Positions 1 through 24,723 of a DNA stretch of 26,111 nucleotides are shown one piece after another. Both the position numbers and the translations under genes were made by a program. Each line of letters starts with the position of its first letter. The stretch's first letter is position 1. Location: positions 1-26,111 of the IMG/VR virus record IMGVR_UViG_3300044840_000005; one strand, written 5' to 3'. This DNA is from a virus (taxonomy: Duplodnaviria > Caudoviricetes). The notes beneath the pieces are model-generated. The model saw only the letters and a list, made by a program, of their open reading frames with translations, had not been told where the DNA came from and searched no databases.

Positions 1-137
1 GGTTTTTGGGTGAGATGCGCTGCTGGATCACCCGCTAAGTGCGCGCGAAAAATCTTGACCTTCTCAATGGTTTTCCTCCTCAACTATCTCGCCTAGTTTC
101 ACACGCGCGCACATGCGCGCACGCACCCGGAGGGCCG

Positions 138-278
138 ATGCAGCAGACGCTACCGCCCGAAGGGCAGCGCACCTACCCGAACGTCTGCGCGTGGTGTGGT
201 GCTTCGCCTGCTGAGCCGTACGAGCTCGAAAGGGCACAACGGCGCGCGGGCGACGCTGAGCGCGAGGTCGGCGAGTAA
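138..278 (+). CDS. Small hypothetical protein with CxxC (46 aa)
   Basis: GGAGGG at 129-134 precedes ATG 138; MQQTLPPEGQRTYPNVCAWCG...; TAA overlaps the terS ATG (TAATG). Confidence 0.5.
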   Translation: MQQTLPPEGQRTYPNVCAWCGASPAEPYELERAQRRAGDAEREVGE

Positions 279-646
279 TGCCCGGTCCCGCTCACAAGTC
301 TTGCCCTGCTGATCTCGACGCGGGCTGGCGTGCGATCTGGAACGTCGCGCACGCTGATATCTCGGAGCGTGGTTGGCGTGATGCGTATCACCCGACGTTG
401 GAGCGGTACGTCCGGTCGTTGCGCGCGGCGAGTGAGTCGCTTGCGGTGATAAAGGCGCACGGGATGACGACGCTTGGTAGCACTGGGCAGGTGGTGTTGT
501 CGCCGCACTGGAAGGTGTACACGGAGGCGTGTCGGATCGCTGATAAGTGCGCGGCTGATTTGCTGTTGACGCCGGCCGCGCGGGCTCGGGTTGGGGATCA
601 GGTTCCGGTTGCGAAGGGCGGGAAGTTCGACGGCAAGTTTGGGTAA
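278..646 (+). CDS. terS: Terminase small subunit, P27 family
   Basis: P27-type pattern (PADLD..W, LERY, SPHW..., LLLTPAARAR) and position upstream of terL. Confidence 0.85.
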   Translation: MPGPAHKSCPADLDAGWRAIWNVAHADISERGWRDAYHPTLERYVRSLRAASESLAVIKAHGMTTLGSTGQVVLSPHWKVYTEACRIADKCAADLLLTPAARARVGDQVPVAKGGKFDGKFG

Positions 647-740
647 ACCGTCGGGCCGTTACTGCCCGCAATGCTCTGGGCGGCGCCGTTGGCGCGGCCA
701 GGTGTGCCCGAAGTGCAAGGGGACCGGAAAGCGGGGGTAG
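639..740 (+). CDS. 33-aa zinc-finger microprotein (DnaJ-type CxxCxG repeats)
   Basis: Hand translation from TTG 639: MGKPSGRYCPQCSGRRRWRGQVCPKCKGTGKRG*; overlaps the terS end; not in the ORF track. Confidence 0.6.
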   Translation: MGKPSGRYCPQCSGRRRWRGQVCPKCKGTGKRG

Positions 741-742
741 CG

Positions 743-844
743 ATGATCGTGGTCTGTTTCTGCGGTGCCACGCTCCGCGGCCCGCGCGTCACGGTCTGCC
801 CTCACTGTCTTGTCCCGGTGCCCGGGCCGCACCCATCGGGGTGA
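743..844 (+). CDS. 33-aa Cys-rich microprotein (CxC...CPHC)
   Basis: MIVVCFCGATLRGPRVTVCPHCLVPVPGPHPSG*; GGGGG upstream; TGA overlaps the terL GTG (GTGA). Confidence 0.55.
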   Translation: MIVVCFCGATLRGPRVTVCPHCLVPVPGPHPSG

Positions 845-2337
845 GCGGCGCCTACTCGTGGTGCTACGAGGACTTCGCACGCTTCTACGAGCTCCTCACT
901 CTCCCCGACGGTAAGCCCGCCCGCCTAGAAGGGCACCTACGCCTGATCTGCCAGGAGATTTTCAACCGGCCAGGCGACTCCGGCCTGCTTGTGATGCTGC
1001 CGAAAGGCAACGGCAAGACAGCTCTCCTCGGTGCCCTGGCCGTTTACCACATGCTCGTCACGCCGAACGCGAACTGCTTCATCGGCGCTGCGAACAAAGA
1101 GCAGGCGAAGGAGATGTACCGCTTCGCTACACACTTCGTGCGCGCCGGCTCGGACTACGAGCTTGAGCGGTACGCGAAGGTGCTTGGCGGCACCCTGGAG
1201 ATCCGGTCTCGTCGCGATGAGGGGTTCATCCTCATCATCGCGTCGGACGACTCGAAGCAGGGCGGTAAGAAGCAGGGCCTCAACGCCACGCTGTTCCTGA
1301 TCGACGAGCTCCACGCTCACGAGAATGATTCGCTGTACACCGACGGTCGGTCGGGGCTGTTCAAGCGTGACGGGACTATGGTCACGATCACGACGGCCGG
1401 GTGGGATCAAGAAAGTACGCTTGGTCGGTTGCGTGCTGGGTTCCTCGCCGCGGACCAGTCTGGCGGGACGGTCGAGCGCAATCTTGTAGTCACTGACGAC
1501 GGCAGCTACGCCCCCCATCCTGACGGCCGGTTGACGGTCGCTCGGATCGGTGACAACGCGATGCTTGAGTGGGCGGCCCGGGAGGACGACGACCCGCAGG
1601 ACTTCGAGGCTGTGAAGCTGGCGAATCCGGCGTCGTTCGTGACGGTCAAGAGCATCCGTAACGCGTTTGAGGAACCTGGCATCACGCCTTGGATTTACGC
1701 CCGCTACCGGATGAATCGTTGGACGTTGGGCTACGAATCGTGGCTGCCGTACGGCGCGTGGGACGTTCTCCACGAGCCGGGGTTGATCTTGGACCCGGAG
1801 TCGCCGCTGTTCGCTGCGGTGGACATGGCGCGCTACCGGGACTGTGCTGCGCTTGTTGCGGTGCAGCCGCGGGGCGATAAGCCCGCGGCGGTGAAGGCGT
1901 GGATTTGGAAGCCGGGCGGCAGGGACGATCCCGTCCCGTACGCGACGGTGATGGATCAGATCCGCGAGCTAAAGCGCGAGTTCAACTTGCGGGCGTGTGC
2001 GTGTGACCCGCGGTGGTTCGATCAGGCTGCGGAGGAGTTGAACAACGAGGGCGTGCCGATGGAGGTTACGGCGCAGTCGAATGAGCGCATGAGCGCTGCG
2101 GCTGCGGATTTGCGGCAGGCGATCCTTGAGGGCCGCCTTGCGCACGATGGTGACCCGGTGCTGGCGGCGCATGTGATGGCTGCGGTGCCGAAGGACGTCG
2201 GCGCGAGTGCGTTCAAGTTGGATAAGCCGCGCTCCTCGGGGCCGGATATCGATGCGGCGGAAGCACTGAGCATGGCGTGGACGCTTGTGGGCCACGACGA
2301 AGTTTCCATGTACGAGGACCCGGAGGCGATCGTTTGA
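841..2337 (+). CDS. terL: Terminase large subunit
   Basis: Walker A LPKGNGKT, Walker B LFLIDELHAH, coupling motif ITTAG, RNase H-like nuclease motifs AAVDMARYRD and DIDAAEALSMA. Confidence 0.95.
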   Translation: MSGAYSWCYEDFARFYELLTLPDGKPARLEGHLRLICQEIFNRPGDSGLLVMLPKGNGKTALLGALAVYHMLVTPNANCFIGAANKEQAKEMYRFATHFVRAGSDYELERYAKVLGGTLEIRSRRDEGFILIIASDDSKQGGKKQGLNATLFLIDELHAHENDSLYTDGRSGLFKRDGTMVTITTAGWDQESTLGRLRAGFLAADQSGGTVERNLVVTDDGSYAPHPDGRLTVARIGDNAMLEWAAREDDDPQDFEAVKLANPASFVTVKSIRNAFEEPGITPWIYARYRMNRWTLGYESWLPYGAWDVLHEPGLILDPESPLFAAVDMARYRDCAALVAVQPRGDKPAAVKAWIWKPGGRDDPVPYATVMDQIRELKREFNLRACACDPRWFDQAAEELNNEGVPMEVTAQSNERMSAAAADLRQAILEGRLAHDGDPVLAAHVMAAVPKDVGASAFKLDKPRSSGPDIDAAEALSMAWTLVGHDEVSMYEDPEAIV

Positions 2338-2471
2338 CCCTAATCCTGCTCTCGGTCTCTCTGTGCCTGATTACGGCGGGAGTGGCGTGCATCTACTGGC
2401 CCGCGGCTCTCGTGGCCGCAGGCGTGCTTCTAGGGGCCTCTGTGTGGTTGCTTGAGAGCGCCGGAGAGTGA
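2334..2471 (+). CDS. Small membrane protein between terL and portal (45 aa)
   Basis: TTGA overlap with terL stop, GTGA overlap with portal start; two hydrophobic segments (LILLSVSLCLITAGVACIYWPAALVAAGVLLG). Confidence 0.7.
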   Translation: MTLILLSVSLCLITAGVACIYWPAALVAAGVLLGASVWLLESAGE

Positions 2472-3802
2472 AGCTCCCGAAGCTGCGCCCCCGCGGCACG
2501 CGGGACAGTCTCTCCACCCCGTCAGAGGACCTGATCGCCGCGTTCGGTGGGCAACAGACCTACTCAGGCAAGACGGTCACGGTTTCCAACGCGCTTCATC
2601 TCGTCCCGGTGTTCCGTGCCGTGACCCTACTGGCCGGCGCGGTGGGCTCACTGCCCCTAGAGGTTTACCGCCGCACGGCGGACAGTCGCAAGCAGCCGGT
2701 GTCCATGACGTCGCGGCCTTGGGAGCTCCTGCACGACAAGCCGAACGAACTCATGGCGGCGGACGAGATGCATTCGCTCGTCATGTCGCACCTCGCGACG
2801 TGGGGCAACGCGTTCCTGTGGAAGGAACGCGGCTCCGACGGGCGCATCGCGCATCTCTGGCCGATTGATCCTCGCCGCGTGCAGGTCGGGCGCTCTCCGG
2901 ATGCTAAGCCGGCGTTCCTTGTGCAGACGTACGGGACGACGCCTCCGGGGCAGGACTACTTTGCGATGGGGCCGAGCGTAGTCGTCGGCTCGGACGAGCT
3001 CCTGCACATTCGCGGGCTCTCCCAGGACGGGCTGATCGGCTATTCGCCGGTGCAGCTTGCCCGGCAGATGCTTGGCGGGATGATGAGTCAGGAGGAGTTC
3101 GAGGGCCGGTTGTGGGCGAACGACGCGACACCGGGCGTGGTGCTCGTGCATCCGAACAGGCTTGCGCCGGAGGCCGTGGATCGGCTGCGGGCGTTGTGGG
3201 ATAACCGCCACAAGGGCCCGAGTCGAGCTCGCGCTACGGCGGTGCTGGGCGAGGGCGTCCAGGTCAAGCAGATGACGATGCCGCTTGAGGACGCTCAGTT
3301 CATCGAGACGGCGAAGTTTCACCGCACGGACGTGGCGCTGTTGTTCGGCATCCCGCCGTACATGCTCGCCGCGGACACCGGGTCGTCTATGACGTACTCG
3401 AATTCTGAGACGCAGAGCCTTGATTTCGTGAAGTGGTCGGCGCGGTCGTGGATGGTTCGGATGGAGTCGGCGTACTCCTGGGACCCGGACCTGATGCCGA
3501 CGAACTGGTACGCGAAGTTTTGTCTGAATGAGCTGCTTCGCGGTTCGATGCAGGAGCGGTTTCAGGCGTACACAATCGCGAAGCACCTTCTCGTGGATGA
3601 GATCCGCGACATGGAGGACATGGAGCCGCTGCCTGACGGTAAGGGGCAGGTGCTCGCGTTCACGATTGGGCCGCCGCGTGGGACGACGATTCCGACGCAG
3701 GACCAGCCGCTAGCAGATCAGCCTACGCCCGGTGAGGGCGAGCCTGTGGGTGATGTGCCCACGGCGCCAACGCCGGATGGAGGTACGACACAAGGTGCAT
3801 GA
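2468..3802 (+). CDS. Portal protein, HK97 family
   Basis: Motifs VFRAVTLLAGAVGSLPL, PNELM, WGNAF, LLHIRG..DGLIGYSP, DAQFIE, FGIPP, YSNSE; position after terL. Confidence 0.95.
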   Translation: MKLPKLRPRGTRDSLSTPSEDLIAAFGGQQTYSGKTVTVSNALHLVPVFRAVTLLAGAVGSLPLEVYRRTADSRKQPVSMTSRPWELLHDKPNELMAADEMHSLVMSHLATWGNAFLWKERGSDGRIAHLWPIDPRRVQVGRSPDAKPAFLVQTYGTTPPGQDYFAMGPSVVVGSDELLHIRGLSQDGLIGYSPVQLARQMLGGMMSQEEFEGRLWANDATPGVVLVHPNRLAPEAVDRLRALWDNRHKGPSRARATAVLGEGVQVKQMTMPLEDAQFIETAKFHRTDVALLFGIPPYMLAADTGSSMTYSNSETQSLDFVKWSARSWMVRMESAYSWDPDLMPTNWYAKFCLNELLRGSMQERFQAYTIAKHLLVDEIRDMEDMEPLPDGKGQVLAFTIGPPRGTTIPTQDQPLADQPTPGEGEPVGDVPTAPTPDGGTTQGA

Positions 3803-4505
3803 TTTCGAGACGCGGGTCGCTGCCGTAAAGCGGGAGATCCGCGCCCGCTCGTGGGACGGGATTGAGCGGCGCACGGTGCCCGGCTCCGTCGAGGCGCGAG
3901 ACCTCGGCGACGGCAAGTGGCAGATCGCTGGCTACGGATTTGTCTACAACTCGTGGTCCGTGGACCTGGGCGGCTTCAAAGAGCGGATCGCACCTGGGGC
4001 GGCCGACGACGTGCTCGCTAGTAACCCCGACATTCGCGGGCTCGTCAATCACAATCCGGACCTCATCTTGGGGCGGACGGTCGCCGGAACCATGGTCGTC
4101 ACGAGCGACACCCATGGTGGCGCGTATGTGATCGACGCGCCGGCAACGTCGTACGCGGCCGACCTTCGCGTTTCACTCGACCGACGCGATATCAACCAGT
4201 CGTCGTTTGCTTTCCGTGTCGAGCGGGGTGGCGCGACGTGGGAGGACGACCCCGAAGACGAGTACGGGCTTCTCCGCACGATTACCAAGTTTTCAGGGCT
4301 CTACGACATGAGCCCGGTCACTTACCCCGCCTACGAGGCGACGTCCAGCGGGGTTGCATCTTCCGTACCCAACGCCGAGCGCAACGGTGATGGCCCCGCT
4401 GGGGAGCGCACCGACGATGGCGACGTTGAGGAGCAGCAGACGGATGGCGCGCCGTGGCGGCTTAGGGCTGCCCAGCGGGGCATGGCGCGACGCGAATCCG
4501 CGTAG
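3795..4505 (+). CDS. Prohead maturation protease, HK97 family
   Basis: IAGYGFVYNSWS.DLGGFKERIAPGA, LVNHNPDLILGRT, INQSSFAF, LYDMSPVTYPAY; GTG 3795 chosen from GGAGG at 3779-3783. Confidence 0.92.
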   Translation: MHDFETRVAAVKREIRARSWDGIERRTVPGSVEARDLGDGKWQIAGYGFVYNSWSVDLGGFKERIAPGAADDVLASNPDIRGLVNHNPDLILGRTVAGTMVVTSDTHGGAYVIDAPATSYAADLRVSLDRRDINQSSFAFRVERGGATWEDDPEDEYGLLRTITKFSGLYDMSPVTYPAYEATSSGVASSVPNAERNGDGPAGERTDDGDVEEQQTDGAPWRLRAAQRGMARRESA

Positions 4506-4533
4506 CGCACATCCGACCACTAGGAGGTACGCC

Positions 4534-5817
4534 CTGAGGCGTGCTATCACCACGCTCCTTGAGGAGCGCGCTGGCCTGTGGGAGCAGATGAAGGCTCTCA
4601 GTGACAAGGCCGAGGCCGAGGGACGCGATCTCACGGCCGACGAGTACGAGCAGTACGGGAAGCTGGAAAGCGACCTGGACGCGAAGGACACGCACGCTAA
4701 GCGCCTTCAGCGCGAGGCGGGCATTGAGTCCAACATGACCCGCGACGTGGCACTGCCCGAGGCTGTTCCGGCCCCGGTCGATCGCACCGTTTCGGAGGTT
4801 GCCGAGGTTCGCGCTCGCGCGGAGCGGGGCGACAAGCAGGCTCAGCGCGAGTACATCGCGTCTGACGAGTACCGGGACGCTTTCGTGGCGGGCATGAAGG
4901 CTCGTTCGCTGGGCGACCTGGACGCCGAGTCTCGCGCGGCGCTGAACGTTGGTACGGGCGCGCAGGGTGGTTTCCTTGTGCCGGCCGAGTTCCAGCGTCA
5001 GCTCGTGGAGTCGGAGCGGTTCTACGGGACGATTCGCCAGCTTTCCACGGTCATCGTGACTGCGGACAACGGTGCGCTGTCGATCCCGAAGGTTGACGAC
5101 GCTAACCGTATGGTGGCGACGTGGACCGCGGAAGCCGCGGCCTTCACGGAGTCTGAGGACCAGTTCCTTCAGGCTACGCTCGGGTCGTTCAAGCAGGGCA
5201 CCATCTCGAAGCTGTCAGACGAGCTGATTCTCGATAGCGCGTTCGACATTCTCGGGTTCGTCGCCCGTTCCGCCGGCCAGGCGCTCGGCCTGCTCGCTAA
5301 CACTGCTTACGCGGTGGGAGCGTCGGGTTCGACCACCACGCCGGAGGGGCTGCTTGTCAAGTCGAGCATCGGTCGTACGATGCCGACCGGCAACTCGACC
5401 AGCATCACGTCCGCGGACGAGCTCATTGAGCTCTACCACTCGGTTCGGCCGGCATACCGCCCTCGCGGTACGTGGGTGTTCTCGGATACGGCGATCAAGC
5501 AGGTTCGTCAGCTCAAGACGTCGCAGGGCGTCTACCTCTGGCAGCCGTCGCTTACGACTGGTGACCCGGACACGATCCTCGGTCGCCCGGTCGTTGCGGA
5601 CCCGGACGTTGCGGTTCCCGCGGCGAACGCTCTGTGCGGCGGTTTCGGTGACGTGAAGTCGGCGTACTGGATTCGCGACGTGCAGGACGTGACGGTGAAG
5701 ATCCTGAACGAGCTGTACGCGGCTAACGGTCAGGTCGGCTACCGCACGCATCGCCGTACCGACGGTGACGTGATCGACACGCTGGCGTTCAAGACGCTCA
5801 AGAACTCGGCCACCTAA
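4534..5817 (+). CDS. Major capsid protein, HK97 fold with N-terminal delta domain; probable CTG start
   Basis: Coiled-coil delta domain (LLEERAGLWEQMK..EGRDLTADE), GGFLVP, SDELILDS, YLWQP..GDPDTILGRPV, ELYAANGQVGY. AGGAGGT at 4522-4528 lies 5 nt before in-frame CTG 4534. Confidence 0.93.
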   Translation: MRRAITTLLEERAGLWEQMKALSDKAEAEGRDLTADEYEQYGKLESDLDAKDTHAKRLQREAGIESNMTRDVALPEAVPAPVDRTVSEVAEVRARAERGDKQAQREYIASDEYRDAFVAGMKARSLGDLDAESRAALNVGTGAQGGFLVPAEFQRQLVESERFYGTIRQLSTVIVTADNGALSIPKVDDANRMVATWTAEAAAFTESEDQFLQATLGSFKQGTISKLSDELILDSAFDILGFVARSAGQALGLLANTAYAVGASGSTTTPEGLLVKSSIGRTMPTGNSTSITSADELIELYHSVRPAYRPRGTWVFSDTAIKQVRQLKTSQGVYLWQPSLTTGDPDTILGRPVVADPDVAVPAANALCGGFGDVKSAYWIRDVQDVTVKILNELYAANGQVGYRTHRRTDGDVIDTLAFKTLKNSAT

Positions 5818-5830
5818 CAGGCCGATCATT

Positions 5831-5860
5831 GCGGTTCCCAGCCTACGGGCATGGCACCGC
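5831..5860 (+). other. RNA hairpin with C(UACG)G tetraloop
   Basis: GCGGT/ACCGC outer stem, CCA/TGG, and GCC-TACG-GGC apex. Confidence 0.55.
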
Positions 5861-5861
5861 T

Positions 5862-5922
5862 GGCGCGAATGGGTGCCCGCTGCTTTAGCGGTGGGCCCGG
5901 GGTTCGATTCCCCGGCGCGCCC
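5862..5922 (+). ncRNA. D-armless tRNA-like element
   Basis: GGCGCG/CGCGCC acceptor-like stem; T arm CCGGGG-TTCGATT-CCCCGG; one 9-bp hairpin GCCCGCTGC-TTTA-GCGGTGGGC in place of the D and anticodon arms. Confidence 0.55.
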
Positions 5923-5929
5923 TCATCGC

Positions 5930-6000
5930 CGCTCCGAGGGCAAAGAGTAAGCCACGGGCCTCATAAGCCTGGGAACCGGGTGCGACTCCCGGCGGAGCTA
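5930..6000 (+). tRNA. Atypical tRNA with CAT anticodon (Met/fMet-like)
   Basis: Cloverleaf: GCTCCG/CGGAGC acceptor with C1:T72 mismatch and A73; D stem GGC/GCC; anticodon arm CGGGC-CTCATAA-GCCTG; T arm CCGGG-TGCGACT-CCCGG; no encoded CCA. Confidence 0.75.
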
Positions 6001-6001
6001 T

Positions 6002-6060
6002 CGGCGGGCGGGATGGGGGTCCCGAGGGTTCCCGTCCTCGGCGCCGCCCGCCGTTCACTT
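6002..6060 (+). terminator. Strong stem followed by TTCACTT; possible terminator or attenuator after the capsid/tRNA unit
   Basis: CGGCGGGCGG (6002-6011) pairs perfectly with CCGCCCGCCG (6044-6053), with internal stems; the T-rich tail is short. Confidence 0.45.
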
Positions 6061-6076
6061 ACCGAGGAGGTACATC

Positions 6077-6271
6077 GTGAAGGTTCGCATTCTCACGGAG
6101 CGGCACCCCCACCACTCGCAGCCCGACCGCGAGTACATCGCGAGCGGGACGGAGATCGACCTTCCCGTCCAGCACGCGAAGGAACTACTCCAGCGCGGCG
6201 ACGCCGAGCCGATCGCGCAGAAGCGCGTCGCGAAGGCTGAGCGCCGCGTGGTGAAGCCCGAGACTCGCTAG
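6077..6271 (+). CDS. Small capsid-adjacent hypothetical protein (64 aa)
   Basis: GAGGAGGT SD; GTEIDLP..AKELL..GDAEP pattern common in genes following HK97-type capsids. Confidence 0.8.
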   Translation: MKVRILTERHPHHSQPDREYIASGTEIDLPVQHAKELLQRGDAEPIAQKRVAKAERRVVKPETR

Positions 6272-7110
6272 TGGACCGAGCCCTACAGTCCTCCACCGCT
6301 ACCGCTTCGGCCCAGTACACGACCGACGGCGCGAACGCCGACCCCGGCGTCGTCACGGTCGGGATCACGCGAGAGGACGGCACCACCCTCGTCGCCCCCG
6401 GTACCGCTACGGCCGGCGCGAGCACCGCGCCGCGGACGTTTGCGTTGACAACGGCCCATACGGCGACGTTGGACTTGCTGACGGTGACGTGGACGAGCGC
6501 GACGCTCGGCGTGATGACCACCTACGTGGAGATTGTCGGCGGGTTCCTGTTCACGGTTGCTGACGCCCGTGCGATCGCTCCTCTGTCGAACGCGACGCTG
6601 TACCCGAACGCGAACATCATCGCCGCTCGAACGGTCGCGGAAGCGGCGCTAGAGGACGCCTGCGGGGTTGCTTTCGTGCCGCGCTACTGCCGAGAGCTCA
6701 TCGACGGCCCGGCCGGTGGCGGGAACGAAGTCCTACTCGATCGCCCGCGCCCCCTATCGATCACGGCCGCGAGCGACACGAGCATTCCGGTCGCCGACCC
6801 TACGACACTGGTGCTGTACCGCGATGGCCGGGTCTACAACCCGACTCGCTGGGCCGAAGGCCGGCGCACCGTGTCGCTCAAGTACACGCACGGCTACCGG
6901 TTCCCGCCGCCCCGAGTAGGCCGCGCTTGCGCGCTGCTCGCGAAGCGGTTTCTCGTGGACTCCCCCATCTCTGATCGCGCGACCGTCCTTCAGTCGGAGG
7001 ACGGCACGACGCAGTTCTTTGTGACGGCCGGCGTGCGCGACGCAGTGTTCGATGTGCCGGAGTGCAATGCGGTGGTCGCTGAGTATGGCGTCCGGTTCGG
7101 GATTGGCTGA
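6271..7110 (+). CDS. Head-tail connector/adaptor with N-terminal beta-rich domain
   Basis: TVADAR...AEAALEDACG..FVPR...YTHGY..PP.VGRACALLA pattern and position; coupled overlaps at both ends. Confidence 0.7.
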   Translation: MDRALQSSTATASAQYTTDGANADPGVVTVGITREDGTTLVAPGTATAGASTAPRTFALTTAHTATLDLLTVTWTSATLGVMTTYVEIVGGFLFTVADARAIAPLSNATLYPNANIIAARTVAEAALEDACGVAFVPRYCRELIDGPAGGGNEVLLDRPRPLSITAASDTSIPVADPTTLVLYRDGRVYNPTRWAEGRRTVSLKYTHGYRFPPPRVGRACALLAKRFLVDSPISDRATVLQSEDGTTQFFVTAGVRDAVFDVPECNAVVAEYGVRFGIG

Positions 7111-7544
7111 TGGCAACATCAAGCGTGCCGTCGGTCAAGGCGGCGATCCTCGCGCTACTCCAGGGGCAGGCGGGCTTCTCCGGGGTGGATGTGCGTTACG
7201 CCCCGCCGACGAAGGACTGGCCGCGGGAGTGCGTGTTCCTGGGGAACGCGGAGTTCGCGGAAGAGTCGATCCCGACGCTGCGTCCCGCTCCTCATCGCCA
7301 CCGCGAGGACTACACGGTGCCGGTGTGGGTGAGCGTGGCGCTTGAGGGCAACGACCCGCAGGCGACCGAGGAGCGAATGTGGACGCTAACGGGGGTCATC
7401 GAGGACGCGCTGCGCAACAACCTGAACCCGTCGGGGACGGCTCTGTGGGCGATCGTGGCGGGCAAGCGCCCGCAGTTGGGCGCGGAGGACGCGCAGTGGG
7501 TCGCGGAGAACTACGTCAGCGTCCGAGTGAGGGCCGACATCTAA
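7110..7544 (+). CDS. Probable tail terminator/completion protein
   Basis: Size, position and pattern (SVPSVKAAILALL...REDYTVPVWVSV...IEDALRNN). Confidence 0.55.
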   Translation: MATSSVPSVKAAILALLQGQAGFSGVDVRYAPPTKDWPRECVFLGNAEFAEESIPTLRPAPHRHREDYTVPVWVSVALEGNDPQATEERMWTLTGVIEDALRNNLNPSGTALWAIVAGKRPQLGAEDAQWVAENYVSVRVRADI

Positions 7545-8056
7545 TGGCCCGTCCGCGAGACGTCCCGTCGAACACGCATGGCGGCGGCTGGCACTACACG
7601 GCGCTGATCGGGTTCGCCCCGGAGTCGCGGGATTGGAAGCCGGGCATGCCGACGTGGCATCCGGTGATCTCGCCTGGTGTGCGGCTTGAGGCGTATGTGA
7701 CGGTGGACGCCGGGGTGTACGCACCGACGTTCATCGGTGCCGACTCGTGGCTGATGAAAAAGGTTCACGTCGGGCACGATGCCATCATCGGGCGGAACTG
7801 TGAGCTCGCTCCGGGTGTCGTCATCGGCGGACACGCGATTCTTCGTGCCGACACGAAGATCGGTGTCAATGCCTGCGTGCTGCCGTACGTCAAGGTCGGC
7901 CGCAACTGCCGTATCGGCGCTGGAGCGGTCGTCACGAAGGACGTGCCCGACGGTGAGGTTTGGGTGGGCAACCCTGCCAGCCCCATCACCAAGACGAAGG
8001 TGTGCGAAGCGTCCGGGTGCTGCGGTGAGTGTGTCGCAGCCGGCGCGAGCGAGTGA
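7544..8056 (+). CDS. Left-handed beta-helix (hexapeptide repeat) acyl/acetyltransferase, LpxA/NeuD-like
   Basis: VTVDAG..PTFIG..WLMKKVHVGHDAIIG, repeated [IV]G hexads, IGAGAVVTKDVP..VWVGNPA; ATG 7544 in a TAATG overlap. Confidence 0.88.
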   Translation: MARPRDVPSNTHGGGWHYTALIGFAPESRDWKPGMPTWHPVISPGVRLEAYVTVDAGVYAPTFIGADSWLMKKVHVGHDAIIGRNCELAPGVVIGGHAILRADTKIGVNACVLPYVKVGRNCRIGAGAVVTKDVPDGEVWVGNPASPITKTKVCEASGCCGECVAAGASE

Positions 8057-8754
8057 AGCTCTGGGCGCTCTGCTCATGGTTCGATGAACGGCCCGAGCAC
8101 CTGACGGAGATGGTGCAGTCCCTCGCCGGGTTGTGCGACGGACTGATCGCGGTGGACGGACCGTACCCGCTGTATCCGCACGACCAGGCCGTGAGCCCGA
8201 CCGAGCAGCACGCCGCGCTTGCGGTCGCTTGCGCCGATGCGGGCATGGAATGCCACATCTACACGCCGGGCCCGCTGACGGAGGTCGACAAGCGCGCGTT
8301 CATGTTCCGCGCCGCGTTGTCCCTAGCCACGCCGTACGAGGACTGGTTCCTCATCATCGACGGCGACACAGTGGTCGGCCAATGCGCGGAGGAACTGCGC
8401 GAAGCACTGGAGCGCACCGCTGTCTCTGTCGGCGAAGTCACGATGCGGACGCTCGCCCCGCCACCGGGGCACGACACCGCAGACCAGTTCTTTCGGTCGT
8501 TGTTCCGTGCGCTGCCGGGCCTGACGGTCGAAGCGACGCACTACCTGTTTGTTGTGCCTACCGAGCGGGGGCGCCGTTATCTCTGGCACACGCCCGATGG
8601 CCACATCTCTGACGAGCCCGCGCTCGGTTTGGGTGAGCATCTTCGGCTGGATCACCGTCGCTGGGACCGTGACCCGGAGCGCAACGACGCGGCTAAGGCG
8701 TACTACGCGCAGCGCGAGAGTCTGCGTGTTGAGGTTCCGCCGGCCGAATGGTGA
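8053..8754 (+). CDS. GT-A fold glycosyltransferase-like protein (GT2-like)
   Basis: N-terminal WFDE..HL...SL....D.LIAVDG, KRAFMF, DxD motif in DWFLIIDGD, late LDH; GTGA overlap with the acyltransferase. Confidence 0.7.
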   Translation: MKLWALCSWFDERPEHLTEMVQSLAGLCDGLIAVDGPYPLYPHDQAVSPTEQHAALAVACADAGMECHIYTPGPLTEVDKRAFMFRAALSLATPYEDWFLIIDGDTVVGQCAEELREALERTAVSVGEVTMRTLAPPPGHDTADQFFRSLFRALPGLTVEATHYLFVVPTERGRRYLWHTPDGHISDEPALGLGEHLRLDHRRWDRDPERNDAAKAYYAQRESLRVEVPPAEW

Positions 8755-16214: not shown

Positions 16215-17225
16215 ATCACTACCACGATTACGCCTGCCCTTGGTCAGGCCGCGCTTTTCACGCAGCAAGGGCCGGGTGCTTCACCGGGCTATAGCGCTAT
16301 TGATCTTCGCCGGTCGGAGATTCCGACGCCGACGCAGGAGGGCGTGTACGCGGCGGGGGATTGGATGGTCACGCAGCGTGGCGCTGGCGCGAACATGAGC
16401 GTGGATATCGCTTCGGCTCCGGTGAGTCTCGCGGCGCCGATTGCGTGCGTGCAGGGCGACAGTGTTGCCGGTCAGGGCATGTACGTGGTGGGTCCGCATT
16501 CCGCGACGGTCAATGAGGTTATCGCGACCGCGGACGCGACGAACCCGCGTATCGACCAGGTGATCTTGGAAGTCCTCGATAACGTGCACGATGCGAGCGG
16601 GTCGAACCTTGCTCGTACGCGGGTGTTGACGGGCACGCCGACGGTGGGTGCGACGTTGGCGAACCGGACTGGTGTGGCGACGTTGCCGGGTTCGGCGTTG
16701 TTGCTTGCTGACATTCTGGTGGGTGCGGCTGCGGCGAGTATCACGAATACGGTGATCCGTGACCGCCGGAAGTTCGCCCGTGGAGCGTACAACCGGATCC
16801 TTCTCAACCATGGGTCCAACTACACGACCACCGTCGGCCCCGCCGCAGTGGACACGACGAGCTTGCAGTTCCGTCTAGAGTGCTCCGGCGTGCCGGTTCG
16901 CATCCACGCAGCGGTCGATTTGCAACATTCCGTTGCTAACGCTTTCGTGACGCTTATCCCGTGGGTAGACAGTGTCAACCCTGACGGGTTTACGGGGGCA
17001 GCACATTGGCAGGTGCAGCTTACGACCAACGCGGCCAGCGACAGACGGACCGAATTCTGGCACGATGCTCTACCGGCGGCCGGCTCGCACCTATTCGCGC
17101 TAGCGTTCGGTGTTGTGACGGCCGGCACATTGACGATAGTGTCTAGCGCGACGGTACCCATTCTCTTCTCTGCGGAGGAAGTCATCCGTCAGAACACGGC
17201 GAACAACACCACGACCAGCGGCTAA
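16215..17225 (+). CDS. Minor tail/fibre-base structural protein; probable ATC start
   Basis: YSAIDLRR..EGV...GD..VTQRGAGANMSVD and NPRIDQVILEV.D...P...LLLADI.V......ITN..I.D.R motifs typical of actinophage minor tail proteins; GGGGAGGT SD at 16203-16210. Confidence 0.75.
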   Translation: MTTTITPALGQAALFTQQGPGASPGYSAIDLRRSEIPTPTQEGVYAAGDWMVTQRGAGANMSVDIASAPVSLAAPIACVQGDSVAGQGMYVVGPHSATVNEVIATADATNPRIDQVILEVLDNVHDASGSNLARTRVLTGTPTVGATLANRTGVATLPGSALLLADILVGAAAASITNTVIRDRRKFARGAYNRILLNHGSNYTTTVGPAAVDTTSLQFRLECSGVPVRIHAAVDLQHSVANAFVTLIPWVDSVNPDGFTGAAHWQVQLTTNAASDRRTEFWHDALPAAGSHLFALAFGVVTAGTLTIVSSATVPILFSAEEVIRQNTANNTTTSG

Positions 17226-17933: not shown

Positions 17934-19082
17934 TTGGCCGTCGTCGCCTGGACATGGACACTCGCCGACAGCCTAGGGAACACCCTTGCTGATCTCACGA
18001 CCGCCGCCGGGCGGTCGTTGACATTCAAGCGCAACACCTACGTCGAGGCGCAGCTAACGCTCTCCCACGAGGACGACGCAGCCGCGCAGCTCTACACCTC
18101 CCTCGCGGCATCCGGTCCCCCCACCCTTCGCTGCTATCGCACCGGTCGCTACGACGGCCCGGGCGCCCCCATGACGCTCCGCTTTAACGGGTACCTCGCA
18201 ACGATCTCCGACGAGCTCGAAGAGACGGCGCTACTCACCGCGACGTTCCGTTCCCCGTTCGGCCGGCTGGTTGGGGACGGGCAGGGCACGGGCCGGTTCA
18301 CGGCGGCGAGCGACCCGCACACGGCGCCAGCACAGGACCAGGGCGCGATAGCGAAGGCGCTCATCGACACGACGAACGCTGACGCGGTTACCGGACTAAC
18401 CACGGCGTCCTCGTACGCGACGACAAAACCTCGCGACCGGACATATCAGTTCGCGAACGTGGGCGACGAGATCACGAACCTGTCGCAACTGCTCGACGGG
18501 TTCGACTTCGACGAGTCGTTCATCGACGGTGGCGGCTCATCGCTCGCGCTGTTCAACGTGTACGGCTCGCAGGGCTCCGACAAGTCCGGCACCGTGAAGT
18601 TCAACTACGGGCCGACAACGCTAGCGAATGTGTCGCACGTGTCGCGCACCATCTCGCCCCCAGTGAACCGCGTGACGGTGATCGGTGCTAACGGTTTGAC
18701 GAGCACATACAACGATGCGACTTCGCAAGGCCAGTATGGGTTGTGGCCGATGTTGCAGTCTGCGAGTGACGTGGTGGAGCAGGCGACGCTTGACGACAAG
18801 GCGCGGGCGCTGATTCGCCCGAAGCCGCTCAAGACGATCCAGTTCTCCCCGGAGCTCGCGTTGGAGTCGTGCCCGCGGTTCTTTGACGATTACGGTCTCG
18901 GCGACACGGTGAACTTCTACGGGTTGCGCGGGGCGTTCTCGGAGAGCGTGAGCGTTCGTGTCAACGCGGTGACGGTCGTCGTGGACGAGCAGGGCTTCGA
19001 GACGACTTCGATTCCGGACGCGACGGACCCCGAGTCTGATCGTGTTGCTCGCGCGCTGCTTCAGGTGGAGGTTACGTCATAG
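17934..19082 (+). CDS. Minor tail protein (hub/Tal-like, ReqiPepy6 Gp37-like)
   Basis: AGGAGG SD; DGFDFD, NRVTVIG, SQGQYGLW, DDYGLGDTV motifs; position. Confidence 0.7.
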   Translation: MAVVAWTWTLADSLGNTLADLTTAAGRSLTFKRNTYVEAQLTLSHEDDAAAQLYTSLAASGPPTLRCYRTGRYDGPGAPMTLRFNGYLATISDELEETALLTATFRSPFGRLVGDGQGTGRFTAASDPHTAPAQDQGAIAKALIDTTNADAVTGLTTASSYATTKPRDRTYQFANVGDEITNLSQLLDGFDFDESFIDGGGSSLALFNVYGSQGSDKSGTVKFNYGPTTLANVSHVSRTISPPVNRVTVIGANGLTSTYNDATSQGQYGLWPMLQSASDVVEQATLDDKARALIRPKPLKTIQFSPELALESCPRFFDDYGLGDTVNFYGLRGAFSESVSVRVNAVTVVVDEQGFETTSIPDATDPESDRVARALLQVEVTS

Positions 19083-19291
19083 GCCAGTTCAACGGTCCTC
19101 CCGACTTCATCGAGCAGATCAAGAGGCTGGACGCCCGTATCTCGTCGCTGGAGCGCACGCGGACGATCCCGATGGGTACCACGATCCCCGCGACGACGCC
19201 TCCGGATGGCGCGATGCAGGGTGACTCGTCCGGCCCGTATCTTTGGCTGAGGGTGGGGGGCGCATGGAAGCGGACAGCGGCGCTCGTATGA
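19079..19291 (+). CDS. Small tail-associated protein (70 aa); probable ATA start
   Basis: GGAGGT at 19067-19072, ATAG overlap; (M)GQFNGPPDFIEQIKRLDARISSLERTR...YLWLRVGGAWKR; ATGA overlap with the next gene; not in the ORF track. Confidence 0.75.
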   Translation: MGQFNGPPDFIEQIKRLDARISSLERTRTIPMGTTIPATTPPDGAMQGDSSGPYLWLRVGGAWKRTAALV

Positions 19292-20129: not shown

Positions 20130-20495
20130 ATAGCTGAATCGCACGGCGAGCGCACGCTCGTCCATCTTGCCGACGTCGCACGAACCCAGTTCAAGCTGCA
20201 CGTTTGGCAGTGGCTCCCTGGTGACGTGGGTTCCGGGCACTCCCCCACGAGCCTGCACGAGCAGACGTTCCCCGGCACGAAGGTCGGGCGGGCGTTCGAC
20301 GCGTACCGGTCGAGCATCCCGCAGGCCCGGTACGCCCGCCACCTGCGCCGGCACTACGTGCCGCTGCTCACCGAGGCGATCTACAACGGCCGGTGGACGA
20401 AGCTGTCCATCAAGGACGGCAAGCATGTCGATCCGTCGTACTGGGGCGCTGACGTGTGGGCCGCGCATCGCGATCACGTTCACGTGGCGATCTAG
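20130..20495 (+). CDS. Putative Zn peptidase of the M15/Hedgehog-DD-peptidase (LAS) type; probable ATA start
   Basis: HSPTSLH...GRAFD...HRDHVHVA metal-ligand pattern; AGGAG at 20120-20124 before ATA 20130. Confidence 0.65.
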   Translation: MAESHGERTLVHLADVARTQFKLHVWQWLPGDVGSGHSPTSLHEQTFPGTKVGRAFDAYRSSIPQARYARHLRRHYVPLLTEAIYNGRWTKLSIKDGKHVDPSYWGADVWAAHRDHVHVAI

Positions 20496-21896: not shown

Positions 21897-22289
21897 TTGG
21901 CAGAGTTCAAGTGCTACGTCGCCGGGCGTACCAAGGACGTGTCTGCGGTGCAGCGTGTGCAGGCGATGGTCCGCGGCGCTGGTGGCGAGATAACGTTCGA
22001 TTGGACCGGACCGGACGGTGAGATTCGCGGTGACTGGTCCGGCGTTCCGGATCGGGCTAGGGCTATCGCTGCGACCGAACGCGAAGGCGTGCGCGAGGCG
22101 GATCTACTAATTTTGGTCTGGCATGAGCACGGAGGGCTAGGAGCCCTGCTCGAAACAGGGATGGCTATGGCGCAGGGAAAGCGGATCATTGTTTACGGTG
22201 CGCCCCGCGAGTCCGTGTTTTGGTACCTGCCTAAGGTGGAACATGCACCCGATGCCTTGGCGCTAATGCGAGCGCTTGGCGTTGGCTGA
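21897..22289 (+). CDS. Nucleoside 2-deoxyribosyltransferase-like / N-glycosidase protein
   Basis: YVAG, GVREADLLIL, GALLETGMA.AQGKRIIV, SVF motifs. Confidence 0.75.
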   Translation: MAEFKCYVAGRTKDVSAVQRVQAMVRGAGGEITFDWTGPDGEIRGDWSGVPDRARAIAATEREGVREADLLILVWHEHGGLGALLETGMAMAQGKRIIVYGAPRESVFWYLPKVEHAPDALALMRALGVG

Positions 22290-23199
22290 GCTTCCGCGGA
22301 ACGGCACGCTCCTCGGTCTAGCGCGGAAGTTCGCCACGGACCAGGCACTAGCCGACCATCTCCAGGTTCCGCGCACGACACTGCGGGACCACATCTACCG
22401 ACTCGGGATGCGCGACGCCGTCAACGCTGTTCGCGAACGCCCGACAACGTCCATCCCCGACGAGATCCCCGTCATCACCCGCGACTACTCGTCGCAGGAC
22501 CGCCACTACATCTACCCGATGGGTGACGTCCACCTCGGCGCGAAGAACCACAACGCGTCGATGTGGCAGGAGTGGCTGCGCTACCTGGAGGACCGCGAAG
22601 ACGCGAGCCTCCTCGGCACCGGGGACTTCCTCAACACCGCAATCATCGGCTCGAAGTCCGACGTGTACGACGAGCAGATGACGGTCGGGGAAGCGAAGCG
22701 CCTCCTCCGCCGACAGCTTGAACCGCTGGCGAAGGCCGGACGCATCGACGGGCTCGGGCCGGGCAACCATGAGAATCGCATCACGCGGGCGATTGGGGAC
22801 TGCCCGATCCTTGACGTGTGCGACTTGCTGAGCGTCCCGTACTGGGAGGCGTCGGCGCTGTTCGTGTATCTCGTGGGCGACCAGGAGTACCGGGTTTTCC
22901 TGCGTCACGGCACGGGGACGGGGCAGGCGTTCACGGCGTTGGACAAGTCGCGGCTCGTGATCCGGGCGGACGTGTTCATCACCGGCCACGTGCACAACCA
23001 GGCTGCCCGAGTGGGCGACCAGTTCGAGTACGACTCGGGCGCGAAGTCGGTCGTCCGGCGCAAATTCCTTGTGGTGAGCTCGGGCGCGTTCCTCGGTTAC
23101 GAGAAGTACGCCGCTGAGCGCGGGTATCAGGCTGGGCATCAGGGCGCGCCGAGGATCTACTTGGATGGGCGCAGGCACGACTTCCACGCAAGCCTCTGA
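22282..23199 (+). CDS. Calcineurin-like metallophosphoesterase with N-terminal HTH
   Basis: GDVHLG, GDFLN, GNHE, RHG, GHVH motifs; N-terminal DQALADHLQVPRTTLRDHI. Confidence 0.88.
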   Translation: MAELPRNGTLLGLARKFATDQALADHLQVPRTTLRDHIYRLGMRDAVNAVRERPTTSIPDEIPVITRDYSSQDRHYIYPMGDVHLGAKNHNASMWQEWLRYLEDREDASLLGTGDFLNTAIIGSKSDVYDEQMTVGEAKRLLRRQLEPLAKAGRIDGLGPGNHENRITRAIGDCPILDVCDLLSVPYWEASALFVYLVGDQEYRVFLRHGTGTGQAFTALDKSRLVIRADVFITGHVHNQAARVGDQFEYDSGAKSVVRRKFLVVSSGAFLGYEKYAAERGYQAGHQGAPRIYLDGRRHDFHASL

Positions 23200-23470
23200 C
23201 TTCGGCGGCAACTGCCCGGGGTGCGCAGGGGTCGGCCGGATCAAGGTGGATCAGCCGGGTTGGGAGGACCACCCGGGCCTGCTCTGCCTGACATGCGAGG
23301 GGACCGGGCTTGCGATGCGCGCCCGGTTGCGGCGCGCGTACATGCTCGGGTTCGAGCAGGGCGTGGATGCGATGCGTCGCGCGCAGCCCGGCCCCCCGGG
23401 TGATGCGGTGGAGCGGCACTGGCGTCAGATTTGGGAAGGGGACGTGCTTGCAGACGACGACGATCACTGA
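23165..23470 (+). CDS. Hypothetical protein with DnaJ-type zinc finger (start uncertain)
   Basis: CPGCAGVG and CLTCEGTG, then AYMLGFEQG. Confidence 0.65.
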   Translation: MGAGTTSTQASDFGGNCPGCAGVGRIKVDQPGWEDHPGLLCLTCEGTGLAMRARLRRAYMLGFEQGVDAMRRAQPGPPGDAVERHWRQIWEGDVLADDDDH

Positions 23471-23636
23471 GGCTTCTACGGTCACCGGGGACCACCGGAA
23501 GGTGGTTGCTCACATCGCGCAGGGCGTGCCGTCTACGGCGCTGTGTGGGGCTCGTGTGACGAAGCTAGTGGAGCCGGGCGCTGGGCGTTGCGCGGTGTGC
23601 CTTGATTTGGCGCGGCCGGGGTTCACTGGGCGTTGA
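23448..23636 (+). CDS. DUF3039-like His/Cys zinc-binding protein
   Basis: TTG after GAAGGGGA; GDH...AH....ALCG...CAVC; TTGA overlap with the next gene. Confidence 0.6.
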   Translation: MQTTTITEASTVTGDHRKVVAHIAQGVPSTALCGARVTKLVEPGAGRCAVCLDLARPGFTGR

Positions 23637-24019
23637 CCGTCCAGGAGATGGTCCGCGAGTTTCACGACACGTTCAACCTCCCCGCTAGCGACAAGCCCGT
23701 CCCCGGCCCCCTTCTCGGTGACCGTGTGCGACGCATGCGACTCATTGACGAGGAGTGCGAAGAGACGCTAGACGAACTGGATCGCCGTGCCGGCGCGTTC
23801 GACCTCGCAGCGCTCGCGAAGGAACTAGCCGACCTCGTGTACGTCGTGTACGGGACCGCGGTGGAGTTCGGCATCCCGTTGGACGCGGTGATCGTGAAGG
23901 TGCACGAGAGCAACATGGCGAAGGTGGGTCCTGACGGTGTAGTGACCTATCGAGCAGACGGGAAGGTCAGCAAGCCGGACGGGTGGCGGCCCCCGGACAT
24001 CGGGGCGGTGCTCGGCTAG
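23633..24019 (+). CDS. MazG-like / PRA-PH family NTP pyrophosphohydrolase
   Basis: VREFH, LIDEECEE, KELADLVYVVYG, VHESNMAK, R.DGKV.KP..W.PPD. Confidence 0.88.
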   Translation: MTVQEMVREFHDTFNLPASDKPVPGPLLGDRVRRMRLIDEECEETLDELDRRAGAFDLAALAKELADLVYVVYGTAVEFGIPLDAVIVKVHESNMAKVGPDGVVTYRADGKVSKPDGWRPPDIGAVLG

Positions 24020-24723
24020 TGCTGCTCTACACGCTTGGCCCCATGTCCGACATGGAGGATCACAACGCGCCGGCCTTCCGCGAAACCGCCGAGATCCTTC
24101 GCGGACTCGGACACGAGGCGATCTCCCCCGTCGAGATGGACGAGGCCGAAGGCTTCGACTTCAAGCGCAAGCTGACCGAAGCCGAGTACGCCGCGTTCCT
24201 CGGACGGGACATTGAGAAGATCGCCGCGCTGGGCGCAGCCGGCAAGCTCGACGGTGGCGTGGCGCTCGACGGTTGGGAACGTTCCCGCGGCGCGGCTGCC
24301 GAAGCCCACGTAATCCGAGCTCTCGGCCGTCCGATCTACCGGCTCGTGCCGGTAGGCGCCAGCATCGACCACTGGGAACTCGAACTACTGCAGGACTCCA
24401 TCGCAAACCGACACCCGGGCAGCGAACACTTCCACGCGATCCTGCGGGACCTCGGCGCCCTGCACGACCGCAAGCAGCAGGACTACGGTCGGGTTGATGA
24501 CCCGTTCGCGAACGTACGGTCTGCTGCGGACTGGGGCGTGCCGGAATGGGTGGGCGGGATGATCCGTGCGACCGACAAGGTGCGCCGGCTCCAGACGTTC
24601 GCTCAGCGCGGGACCCTTGCTAACGAGGGTGTCGTGGACGCGTTCAACGACCTGGCCGTCTACGCCATCATTTGTCGCGTGCTCTACGAGCAGTCTGAGC
24701 GCGCACCCGAAGCCCCGCGTTAG
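24019..24723 (+). CDS. DUF4406 (NDT-like) domain fused to a DUF1599/Nmad1-like domain
   Basis: N-terminal GPMS...HNAPAF...LDGWERSRGA.AE; C-terminal RKQQDYG..DPFAN...IRATDKVRRL...NEGVVD.FNDLAVYAII. Confidence 0.75.
   Translation: MLLYTLGPMSDMEDHNAPAFRETAEILRGLGHEAISPVEMDEAEGFDFKRKLTEAEYAAFLGRDIEKIAALGAAGKLDGGVALDGWERSRGAAAEAHVIRALGRPIYRLVPVGASIDHWELELLQDSIANRHPGSEHFHAILRDLGALHDRKQQDYGRVDDPFANVRSAADWGVPEWVGGMIRATDKVRRLQTFAQRGTLANEGVVDAFNDLAVYAIICRVLYEQSERAPEAPR

Follow-up and report, generated by a model that had tools for sequence, protein, structure and literature searches.

Why phages carry initiator tRNAs is a long-open question, and the locus described here raises it in a particular form: an initiator-like tRNA gene lies in the capsid 3′ region of a siphovirus in which several late genes open at unusual start codons. 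An initial annotation of this DNA had suggested that the tRNA and the odd starts together form an alternative initiation system. What is this tRNA, is it tied to the odd starts, and what might it do for the phage?

Start codons of the late operon

The window, by which we mean the whole stretch of DNA that was analyzed, is an entire virus record of 26,111 bases (65% GC) and holds the late region of an HK97-type siphovirus, with terminase, portal, protease, capsid, tail, and lysis-region genes recognized by PHROG matches. Its sequence is present in two soil metagenome runs from two studies, one of which is possibly its source; a contig of one run, which may be the source sample, matches positions 38-7385 with zero letter differences. 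No RNA run was found among the sequencing runs that contain the sequence. Among genomes, the capsid finds its best match in a Solirubrobacterales prophage (48%), one homologue of the ATC-start gene described below is named Solirubrobacter sp., and the family of that gene matches a prophage in Thermoleophilia (E 1.6e-103). From these matches we infer a Solirubrobacterales-like host within the Thermoleophilia.

Four genes of the window begin at near-cognate codons:

4534..5817, + strand: HK97-type major capsid gene (PHROG 10), CTG start, with AGGAGGT at 4522-4528
16215..17225, + strand: virion structural gene, ATC start behind GGAGGT
19079..19291, + strand: 70-aa gene, ATA start behind GGAGGT
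20130..20495, + strand: 121-aa gene, ATA start behind AGGAG; the first in-frame GTG is codon 33

The CTG start of the capsid gene, already proposed in the initial annotation, is backed both by its Shine-Dalgarno sequence and by the N-termini of homologues: 49 of 56 start within −5 to +6 of the CTG at 4534, none starts further upstream, and 7 are called at the internal Met19, where the calls may themselves hide near-cognate starts. For the ATC at 16215, residue 1 of 109 of the 119 homologues maps onto the codon. The two homologues of the gene at 19079 both start at its ATA, at −1 and +1, and the gene is covered by a contig from a second metagenome run with zero letter differences. Its start overlaps the upstream TAG stop (ATAG, 19079-19082), the same −4 geometry as ATGA, GTGA, and TTGA elsewhere in the operon. 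At 20130, homologues P0244, P0245, P0247, P0250, P0251, and P0253 align from query residues 4-10 and from their own residues 2-13, upstream of the first GTG; the Atlas matches of this gene are viral VldE-like clusters.

Hand assignment of 37 starts, with a few small frames set aside, gave 16 GTG, 10 ATG, 7 TTG, 2 ATA, 1 CTG, and 1 ATC, i.e., 27 non-ATG starts, 4 of them near-cognate. At the internal ATA rate, two ATA codons among 37 starts have a probability of 0.0007. By these comparisons, the CTG, the ATC, and both ATA starts are real.

Near-cognate initiation is familiar from infC, which starts at AUU. In the E. coli measurements given in 10.1101/063800, CUG, AUA, and AUC starts yield 1–2% of the output of AUG, which makes a CTG start on a capsid gene a real puzzle. 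The window resembles the Shine-Dalgarno-led cases described there in its codons and its strong Shine-Dalgarno sites, but it has four such starts in 26 kb, the major capsid gene included. Weak starts appear to be a habit across the whole clade: 16 of 38 JGI homologues of the ATC-start gene begin with L or V, which represent start codons if, as we infer, JGI keeps the residue of the codon. Because gene callers skip CTG, ATC, and ATA, they cut off N-termini, and the database proteins for this contig are shortened to 409 from 427 aa, 286 from 336, and 89 from 121. As to whether the host tolerates such starts, in ribosomal-protein operon stretches of five Thermoleophilia genomes (7 of 9 fetched stretches; highly expressed and thus a biased sample), the recognizable genes start at ATG, GTG, or TTG, and the CTG, ATA, and ATC calls lie beside a canonical codon or in doubtful frames.

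An initiator-like tRNA in the capsid 3′ region

Downstream of the capsid stop, the window holds a block of structured RNAs followed by a small gene:

5831..5860, + strand: hairpin with a UACG loop past the capsid stop (fold z −2.72)
5861..5922, + strand: D-armless tRNA-like element (fold z −2.84)
5930..6000, + strand: initiator-type tRNA-Met(CAU), 71 nt (called from Rfam RF00005, base positions, and a class survey)
6002..6053, + strand: GC-rich hairpin 3′ of the tRNA (fold z −1.63, weak)
6077..6271, + strand: small conserved gene that begins at GTG (at ATG in the relative L162)

The tRNA had been described as lying directly after the capsid gene; it starts 112 nt past the capsid stop (5817), and two RNA elements lie between. 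The closest relative with DNA (L162, the single close contig from a metagenome scan) is short and does not include the capsid start; its capsid is 66% identical. A UACG-loop hairpin occurs there at the same place as 5831..5860, and relatives likewise have hairpins downstream of the capsid gene. The RNA block and the tRNA are absent at the same place in L162, which points to a recent or sporadic insertion of unproven function. In its own capsid 3′ region (1290-1356), L162 carries a four-way junction with three hairpins (z −2.91) and no Rfam match. Structured RNAs may have a slot here, 3′ of the capsid gene.

The element at 5861-5922 is built from a 6-bp acceptor-like stem, a 7-nt linker with GG, a 9-bp hairpin with a 4-nt loop, and a 6-bp T-arm with TTCGATT. 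The T-arm is perfect, the acceptor/T stack spans 12 bp, and the element ends 7 nt before the tRNA. Its match to mascRNA in Rfam is weak (E 0.21). Among the eight matches to a descriptor in 4.87 Mb of fetched loci, it is the only one with an unpaired linker and a single long hairpin; the shuffled control gave none. The element may be a degenerate tRNA, a processing signal, or a decoy. A reading as an ochre-suppressor or Lys tRNA was rejected, since by inspection no register places a 7-nt loop on a paired stem. Separately, two viral loci (L262 and L338) hold compact folds that resemble tRNAs and have a 4-nt loop on each inner arm. The hairpin at 6002..6053 is possibly an attenuator; neither a sigma-70 promoter nor a U-tract terminator was found near the tRNA. 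The capsid frame also stays open for 140 codons past its TAA, across both RNA elements (5818-6240), probably by chance at 65% GC.

The tRNA itself matches RF00005 at 37.0 bits (gathering threshold 29, E 1.6e-4). ARAGORN does not call it at default settings; with -ps85 it appears as tRNA-Met(cat), one among 10 low-threshold calls, and the -ps70 output is pure noise. CCA is not encoded. The cloverleaf lies 2.1 kcal/mol above a minimum free energy (MFE) rod, which is not unusual, as the anticodon stem is missing from the MFE structure in 45 of 149 viral initiator-type tRNAs. The oddities first noticed in its bases hold to the letter: C1 (5930) opposite U72 (5999), A73 (6000), A8 (5937), A18 (5946), G55 (5982), and C31:G39, within an anticodon stem of G29/G30/C31 (5957-5959) and G39/C40/C41 (5967-5969) around the CAT at 5962-5964. 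An exact-pattern scan of IMG/VR found no close copies, and the closest match (86% over 58 nt) belongs to a jumbo phage of Sinorhizobium that is unrelated. The sole match of a plasmid search was a partial anticodon-arm match in an unannotated stretch of a Nonomuraea linear plasmid (L524, 1501-1538).

The identity bases bear out the earlier view that the tRNA is initiator-like and fit the predicted charging and formylation. The formylase determinants are a 1:72 mismatch, G2:C71, C3:G70, and a purine 11:pyrimidine 24 pair (PMC7949028; PMC9976931). The tRNA has all of these, with G11:C24 in place of the usual A11:U24 of E. coli (PMC7949028). Among the methionine determinants (the Met and Ile lists come from PMC9976931, the Ile list from its Table 1), A73, G2-C71, C3-G70, U4-A69, and CAU are present, but position 5:68 is C5:G68 instead of A5-U68. 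The middle pair of the anticodon stem, G30:C40, is also present, and G30 is given as the only stem position essential for initiation in E. coli (PMC5389676).

Compared with bacterial tRNA-fMet (E. coli metZWV/metY; Thermoleophilia L205/L206 and L451-L475), the window tRNA thus has the same 1:72 mismatch, G2:C71, C3:G70, R11:Y24, G29:C41, G30:C40, CUCAUAA loop, and A73, and its C1×U72 is common to 4 of 4 well-parsed host-class sequences. It differs in having C31:G39 rather than G31:C39, G11:C24 rather than A11:U24, and shorter D and variable loops, and in lacking the universal core bases U8 and G18/U55, for which it has A8 and A18/G55. The three consecutive G-C pairs of the anticodon stem (29:41, 30:40, 31:39) are a textbook, near-universal mark of initiator tRNAs. 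Because the third is C31:G39, we class the window tRNA as a variant and not as a canonical initiator tRNA-fMet.

The C31:G39 variant in viruses and bacteria

The initial annotation had read the loss of the third G-C pair as pointing to an initiation system of its own, a view that the same stem in another setting does not support. An engineered ‘3rd CG’ tRNAfMet (GC/GC/cg), with last three anticodon-stem pairs identical to those of the window tRNA, sustained E. coli without all four chromosomal fMet genes, and it is not among the mutants that the consulted text gives as cold-sensitive (Shetty et al., 2017, PMC5389676). By analogy, the missing third pair would not disable initiation, and the stem that served as the sole E. 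coli initiator is also a common viral variant. The window tRNA differs from the engineered one in being natural, phage-borne, and remodeled in its body. The natural exceptions to the three G-C pairs listed in that text are only AU and GU (mycoplasmas and alpha-proteobacteria; PMC5389676).

We estimate that the C31:G39 CAU pattern occurs in about 2,700 IMG/VR stretches (from 3 of 64 parts) and the G31:C39 pattern in about 5,900 (from 2 of 64 parts). Each scan returned 120 loci, of which 118 were parsed. The C31:G39 sample held 115 distinct sequences; 94 fold well as tRNAs, 70 of them with G2:C71 and C3:G70, and 24 of these 70 have the GC/GC/CG stem of the window. The corresponding G31:C39 counts were 117, 97, and 79. 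The C31:G39 share of viral initiator-type tRNAs is therefore about 29%, a rough figure, as the loop and the pyrimidines at 40/41 are fixed in the search pattern and some of the canonical set may be host tRNAs that flank prophages. In 563 bacterial genomes, a sample that does not include Pseudomonadota, the scan found no C31:G39 pattern: 0 of 401 in the likely host class Thermoleophilia, and 0 of 81 in each of two other phyla, one that of a Chitinophagaceae bin and the other that of Gracilibacillus. As a positive control, the canonical pattern matches 130 of 151 host-class genomes and 4 of 5 genomes outside that class.

BLAST places C31:G39 in cultured phages of Sinorhizobium, Stenotrophomonas, Streptomyces, and Myxococcus, and U31:G39 in a mycobacteriophage. 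C31:G39 is thus a viral variant class, enriched in viruses relative to the sampled bacteria. Phage initiator tRNAs and exceptions to the three G-C pairs are already known; we found no paper on a virus-enriched C31:G39 class in searches limited to open-licence literature. The annotated tRNA-Met(CAU) genes of Sinorhizobium phage Phosso, Stenotrophomonas phage Ps15, and Streptomyces phage Patelgo (gene 123) and the unannotated one of Myxococcus phage Mx1 share C31:G39 and an initiator-type acceptor stem with the window tRNA. Phosso also shares A8 and the GGAA loop, and Mx1 shares A18/G55. These are large phages, mostly with tRNA clusters, whereas the window has a single tRNA gene, placed 3′ of the capsid gene of a siphovirus. 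The Mx1 gene lies at about 52265-52335 of its record (L203). In another C31:G39 locus (L243, 4025-5224), a 400-codon frame opens at an ATC directly after TAAGGAGGT, likely a genuine near-cognate start.

Viral initiator tRNAs vary widely. A29:U41 is found in 81 of 149, and 15 of 149 have a base other than U at position 8, some of these being parse errors. The D-loop and T-loop changes of the window tRNA go together: among the same 149, the D-loop GG is missing in 7 of 8 tRNAs with G55 and present in 141 of 141 with U55 (P 3e-11), and Mx1 again has A18/G55. The two changes are one coupled swap, and the covariation of positions 18 and 55 supports the suspicion that the T-loop change is compensatory.

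Possible roles of the tRNA

If the tRNA served the odd starts, the two should co-occur, a check that the initial annotation had proposed. In favor of a link, CAU tRNAs are lacking in the relatives with DNA, whose orthologous starts are ATG, GTG, or TTG (capsid in 6 of 6 phages, ATC-start gene in 4 of 4); these relatives are mostly fragments or 20-kb stretches, with two records bearing terminal repeats, and exclude the 12 closest capsid homologues (P0002-P0013). ATG stands at 76 of 113 confident canonical starts in relatives without the tRNA versus 7 of 25 in the window (P 0.0005), with only ATG, GTG, and TTG counted because the automatic start caller makes false near-cognate calls. A single-sequence capsid scan added one distant locus, and broad-alignment scans gave mostly 33-39% relatives, which served as background only.

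The wider screens point in different directions: three versions of a Shine-Dalgarno screen disagree and are noisy. The loose one found 64 near-cognate codons near C31:G39 tRNAs against 45.6 expected (1.40-fold, P 0.006), with ratios of 0.74 near G31:C39 and 1.13-1.14 at capsid loci. The stricter one gave 1.35 (C31:G39), 1.05 (G31:C39), and 1.60 and 1.36 (capsid loci), with equal ATG shares (0.74 versus 0.73) and a P of 1.0 between the two tRNA sets; by hand count, 6 and 7 candidates, from 80 loci each, had no canonical codon upstream. This screen missed all four true window cases and is therefore weak. Patelgo, with its C31:G39 initiator-type tRNA, uses 22 ATG, 5 TTG, and 2 GTG in the 29 annotated starts checked; one possible hidden ATA start precedes its tape measure gene. 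Relatives thus lack both traits, but there is no robust excess in the screens and Patelgo starts are ordinary, so a link between tRNA and odd starts is unsupported across phages.

We propose, with moderate confidence, that the capsid transcript is the likely source of this initiator-type tRNA-Met(CAU) and that its likely role is that of a spare initiator, which a host nuclease directed at initiator tRNA would leave uncut. A backup against an fMet-cleaving nuclease was among the alternatives named in the initial annotation. Host RNases would cut it out of the abundant capsid transcript, CCA would be added, and host MetRS and formylation enzymes would charge it with methionine and formylate it. 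Where a nuclease destroys the host initiator, the phage spare would keep initiation going, and CTG, ATC, and ATA would be read by ordinary near-cognate CAU pairing behind strong Shine-Dalgarno sites. A late operon poor in ATG would suffer more when initiator tRNA runs short, a possible reason for the phage to keep a spare.

The expected resistance would come from the 31:39 flip. An enteric VapC cuts tRNAfMet between A38 and C39 (PMC4105405), a cut known for enteric VapC only. The phage tRNA has G39 where the host has C39, and its stem would still pair; since the flip changes the base at the cut bond, the tRNA is predicted to escape such nucleases. The third pair is flipped at this base in roughly 3 of every 10 initiator-type tRNAs of viruses, versus none in the 563 bacterial genomes, and the flip offers a single-base-pair test of why phages carry initiator tRNAs. 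In 2018, Walling and Butler reportedly found that VapC cutting requires G-C pairs in the stem. VapCs recognize both sequence and structure, and those that cut fMet are described from Proteobacteria and Leptospira, with none from Thermoleophilia in the accounts cited here (PMC7180214; PMC8522696), a point against our proposal. Van den Berg et al. (2023, PMC10264068) have put forward the hypothesis that phage tRNAs evade anticodon nucleases. The window tRNA resembles the tRNAs considered there in that the phage copy differs from the host at the cut site; its change, however, is a stem pair flip in an initiator, with resistance predicted only. According to the same source, Shigella phages mostly avoid tRNA-fMet and the recognition sequence is not known, which counts against a spare initiator. 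So do the absence of the tRNA from L162, its much remodeled body (A8, A13.A22, short loops), its non-MFE cloverleaf, and the greater use of ATG in relatives without it, which favors a tie to weak starts.

Such a tie could take the form of a tRNA that selectively raises initiation at CTG, ATA, ATC, GTG, and TTG by slipping past IF3 proofreading, so that late genes, and the capsid gene above all, would be translated well only after the late transcript had yielded the tRNA. The 27 non-ATG starts of the window, its four near-cognates, the poor fit of a 1–2% codon (10.1101/063800) with a major capsid gene, the location of the tRNA in the capsid 3′ region, the canonical orthologous starts of relatives without it, and the excess in the loose screen all agree with this. 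We nevertheless consider it unlikely: the anticodon is plain CAU, so its codon pairing would be no better than that of the host initiator; the stricter screen, which admittedly missed the four window cases, sees no significant difference between tRNA sets; Patelgo combines the tRNA type with ordinary starts; weak starts extend across the clade in the JGI homologues; and a single genome with both traits is one event. A broader version, in which the viral flipped-31:39 class both escapes initiator-cutting toxins and loosens start proofreading, so that the phage has a switch and CTG, ATC, and ATA late genes become abundant only after the late transcript frees the tRNA, is speculative and seems to us quite improbable. 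We find it unlikely, too, that the tRNA is a plain dosage supplement or a passenger from another phage, with the flip as tolerated drift and the weak starts as an unrelated clade habit. E. coli tolerates the flip (PMC5389676), viral initiator tRNAs vary at position 8 (parse errors included) and at 29:41, the closest match is in an unrelated jumbo phage, and L162 lacks the tRNA. Drift, however, poorly explains a double change kept Watson-Crick in about 29% of viral copies, by the rough estimate above, and in none of the sampled bacterial genomes.

The tRNA and the D-armless element might also stand outside translation altogether, as a decoy that titrates a tRNA-targeting host enzyme or as a degenerate pair. 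A8, A13.A22, the missing CCA, the non-MFE cloverleaf, and a neighbor with neither a D arm nor a 7-nt anticodon loop would suit this account, which we think very unlikely: all stems of the tRNA pair, its identity bases are intact, A18/G55 are coupled, and A8 and the GGAA variable loop recur in the annotated tRNA-Met of Phosso. A decoy, moreover, should keep the host-like target and not alter it. Least probable is a lysidine-modified tRNA-Ile2 reading AUA, one of the alternatives first offered, or an elongator tRNA-Met. The CAU anticodon, A73, and the two ATA starts are compatible with these identities. The 1:72 mismatch and R11:Y24 are initiator marks, however, and an elongator tRNA cannot start translation at ATA. 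We rejected tRNA-Ile2 because none of the three Ile stem determinants is present (U4:A69, C12:G23, and G29:C41 stand in place of C4-G69, U12-A23, and C29-G41), and AUA demand is low, with 8 internal ATA among 7,715 codons across the 37 genes.

Apart from the tRNA locus, two further stretches of the window stand out. At 7544-8754, two genes are inserted in the head-tail region; one encodes a hexapeptide-repeat-like sequence by eye, with PHROG matches of no known function, and the other a glycosyltransferase (PHROG 7009), a pair that could possibly act in virion glycosylation. At 21897-24723 lies a nucleotide-handling cluster with matches to a DNA repair exonuclease-like protein, a MazG-like pyrophosphatase, and a nucleoside 2-deoxyribosyltransferase.
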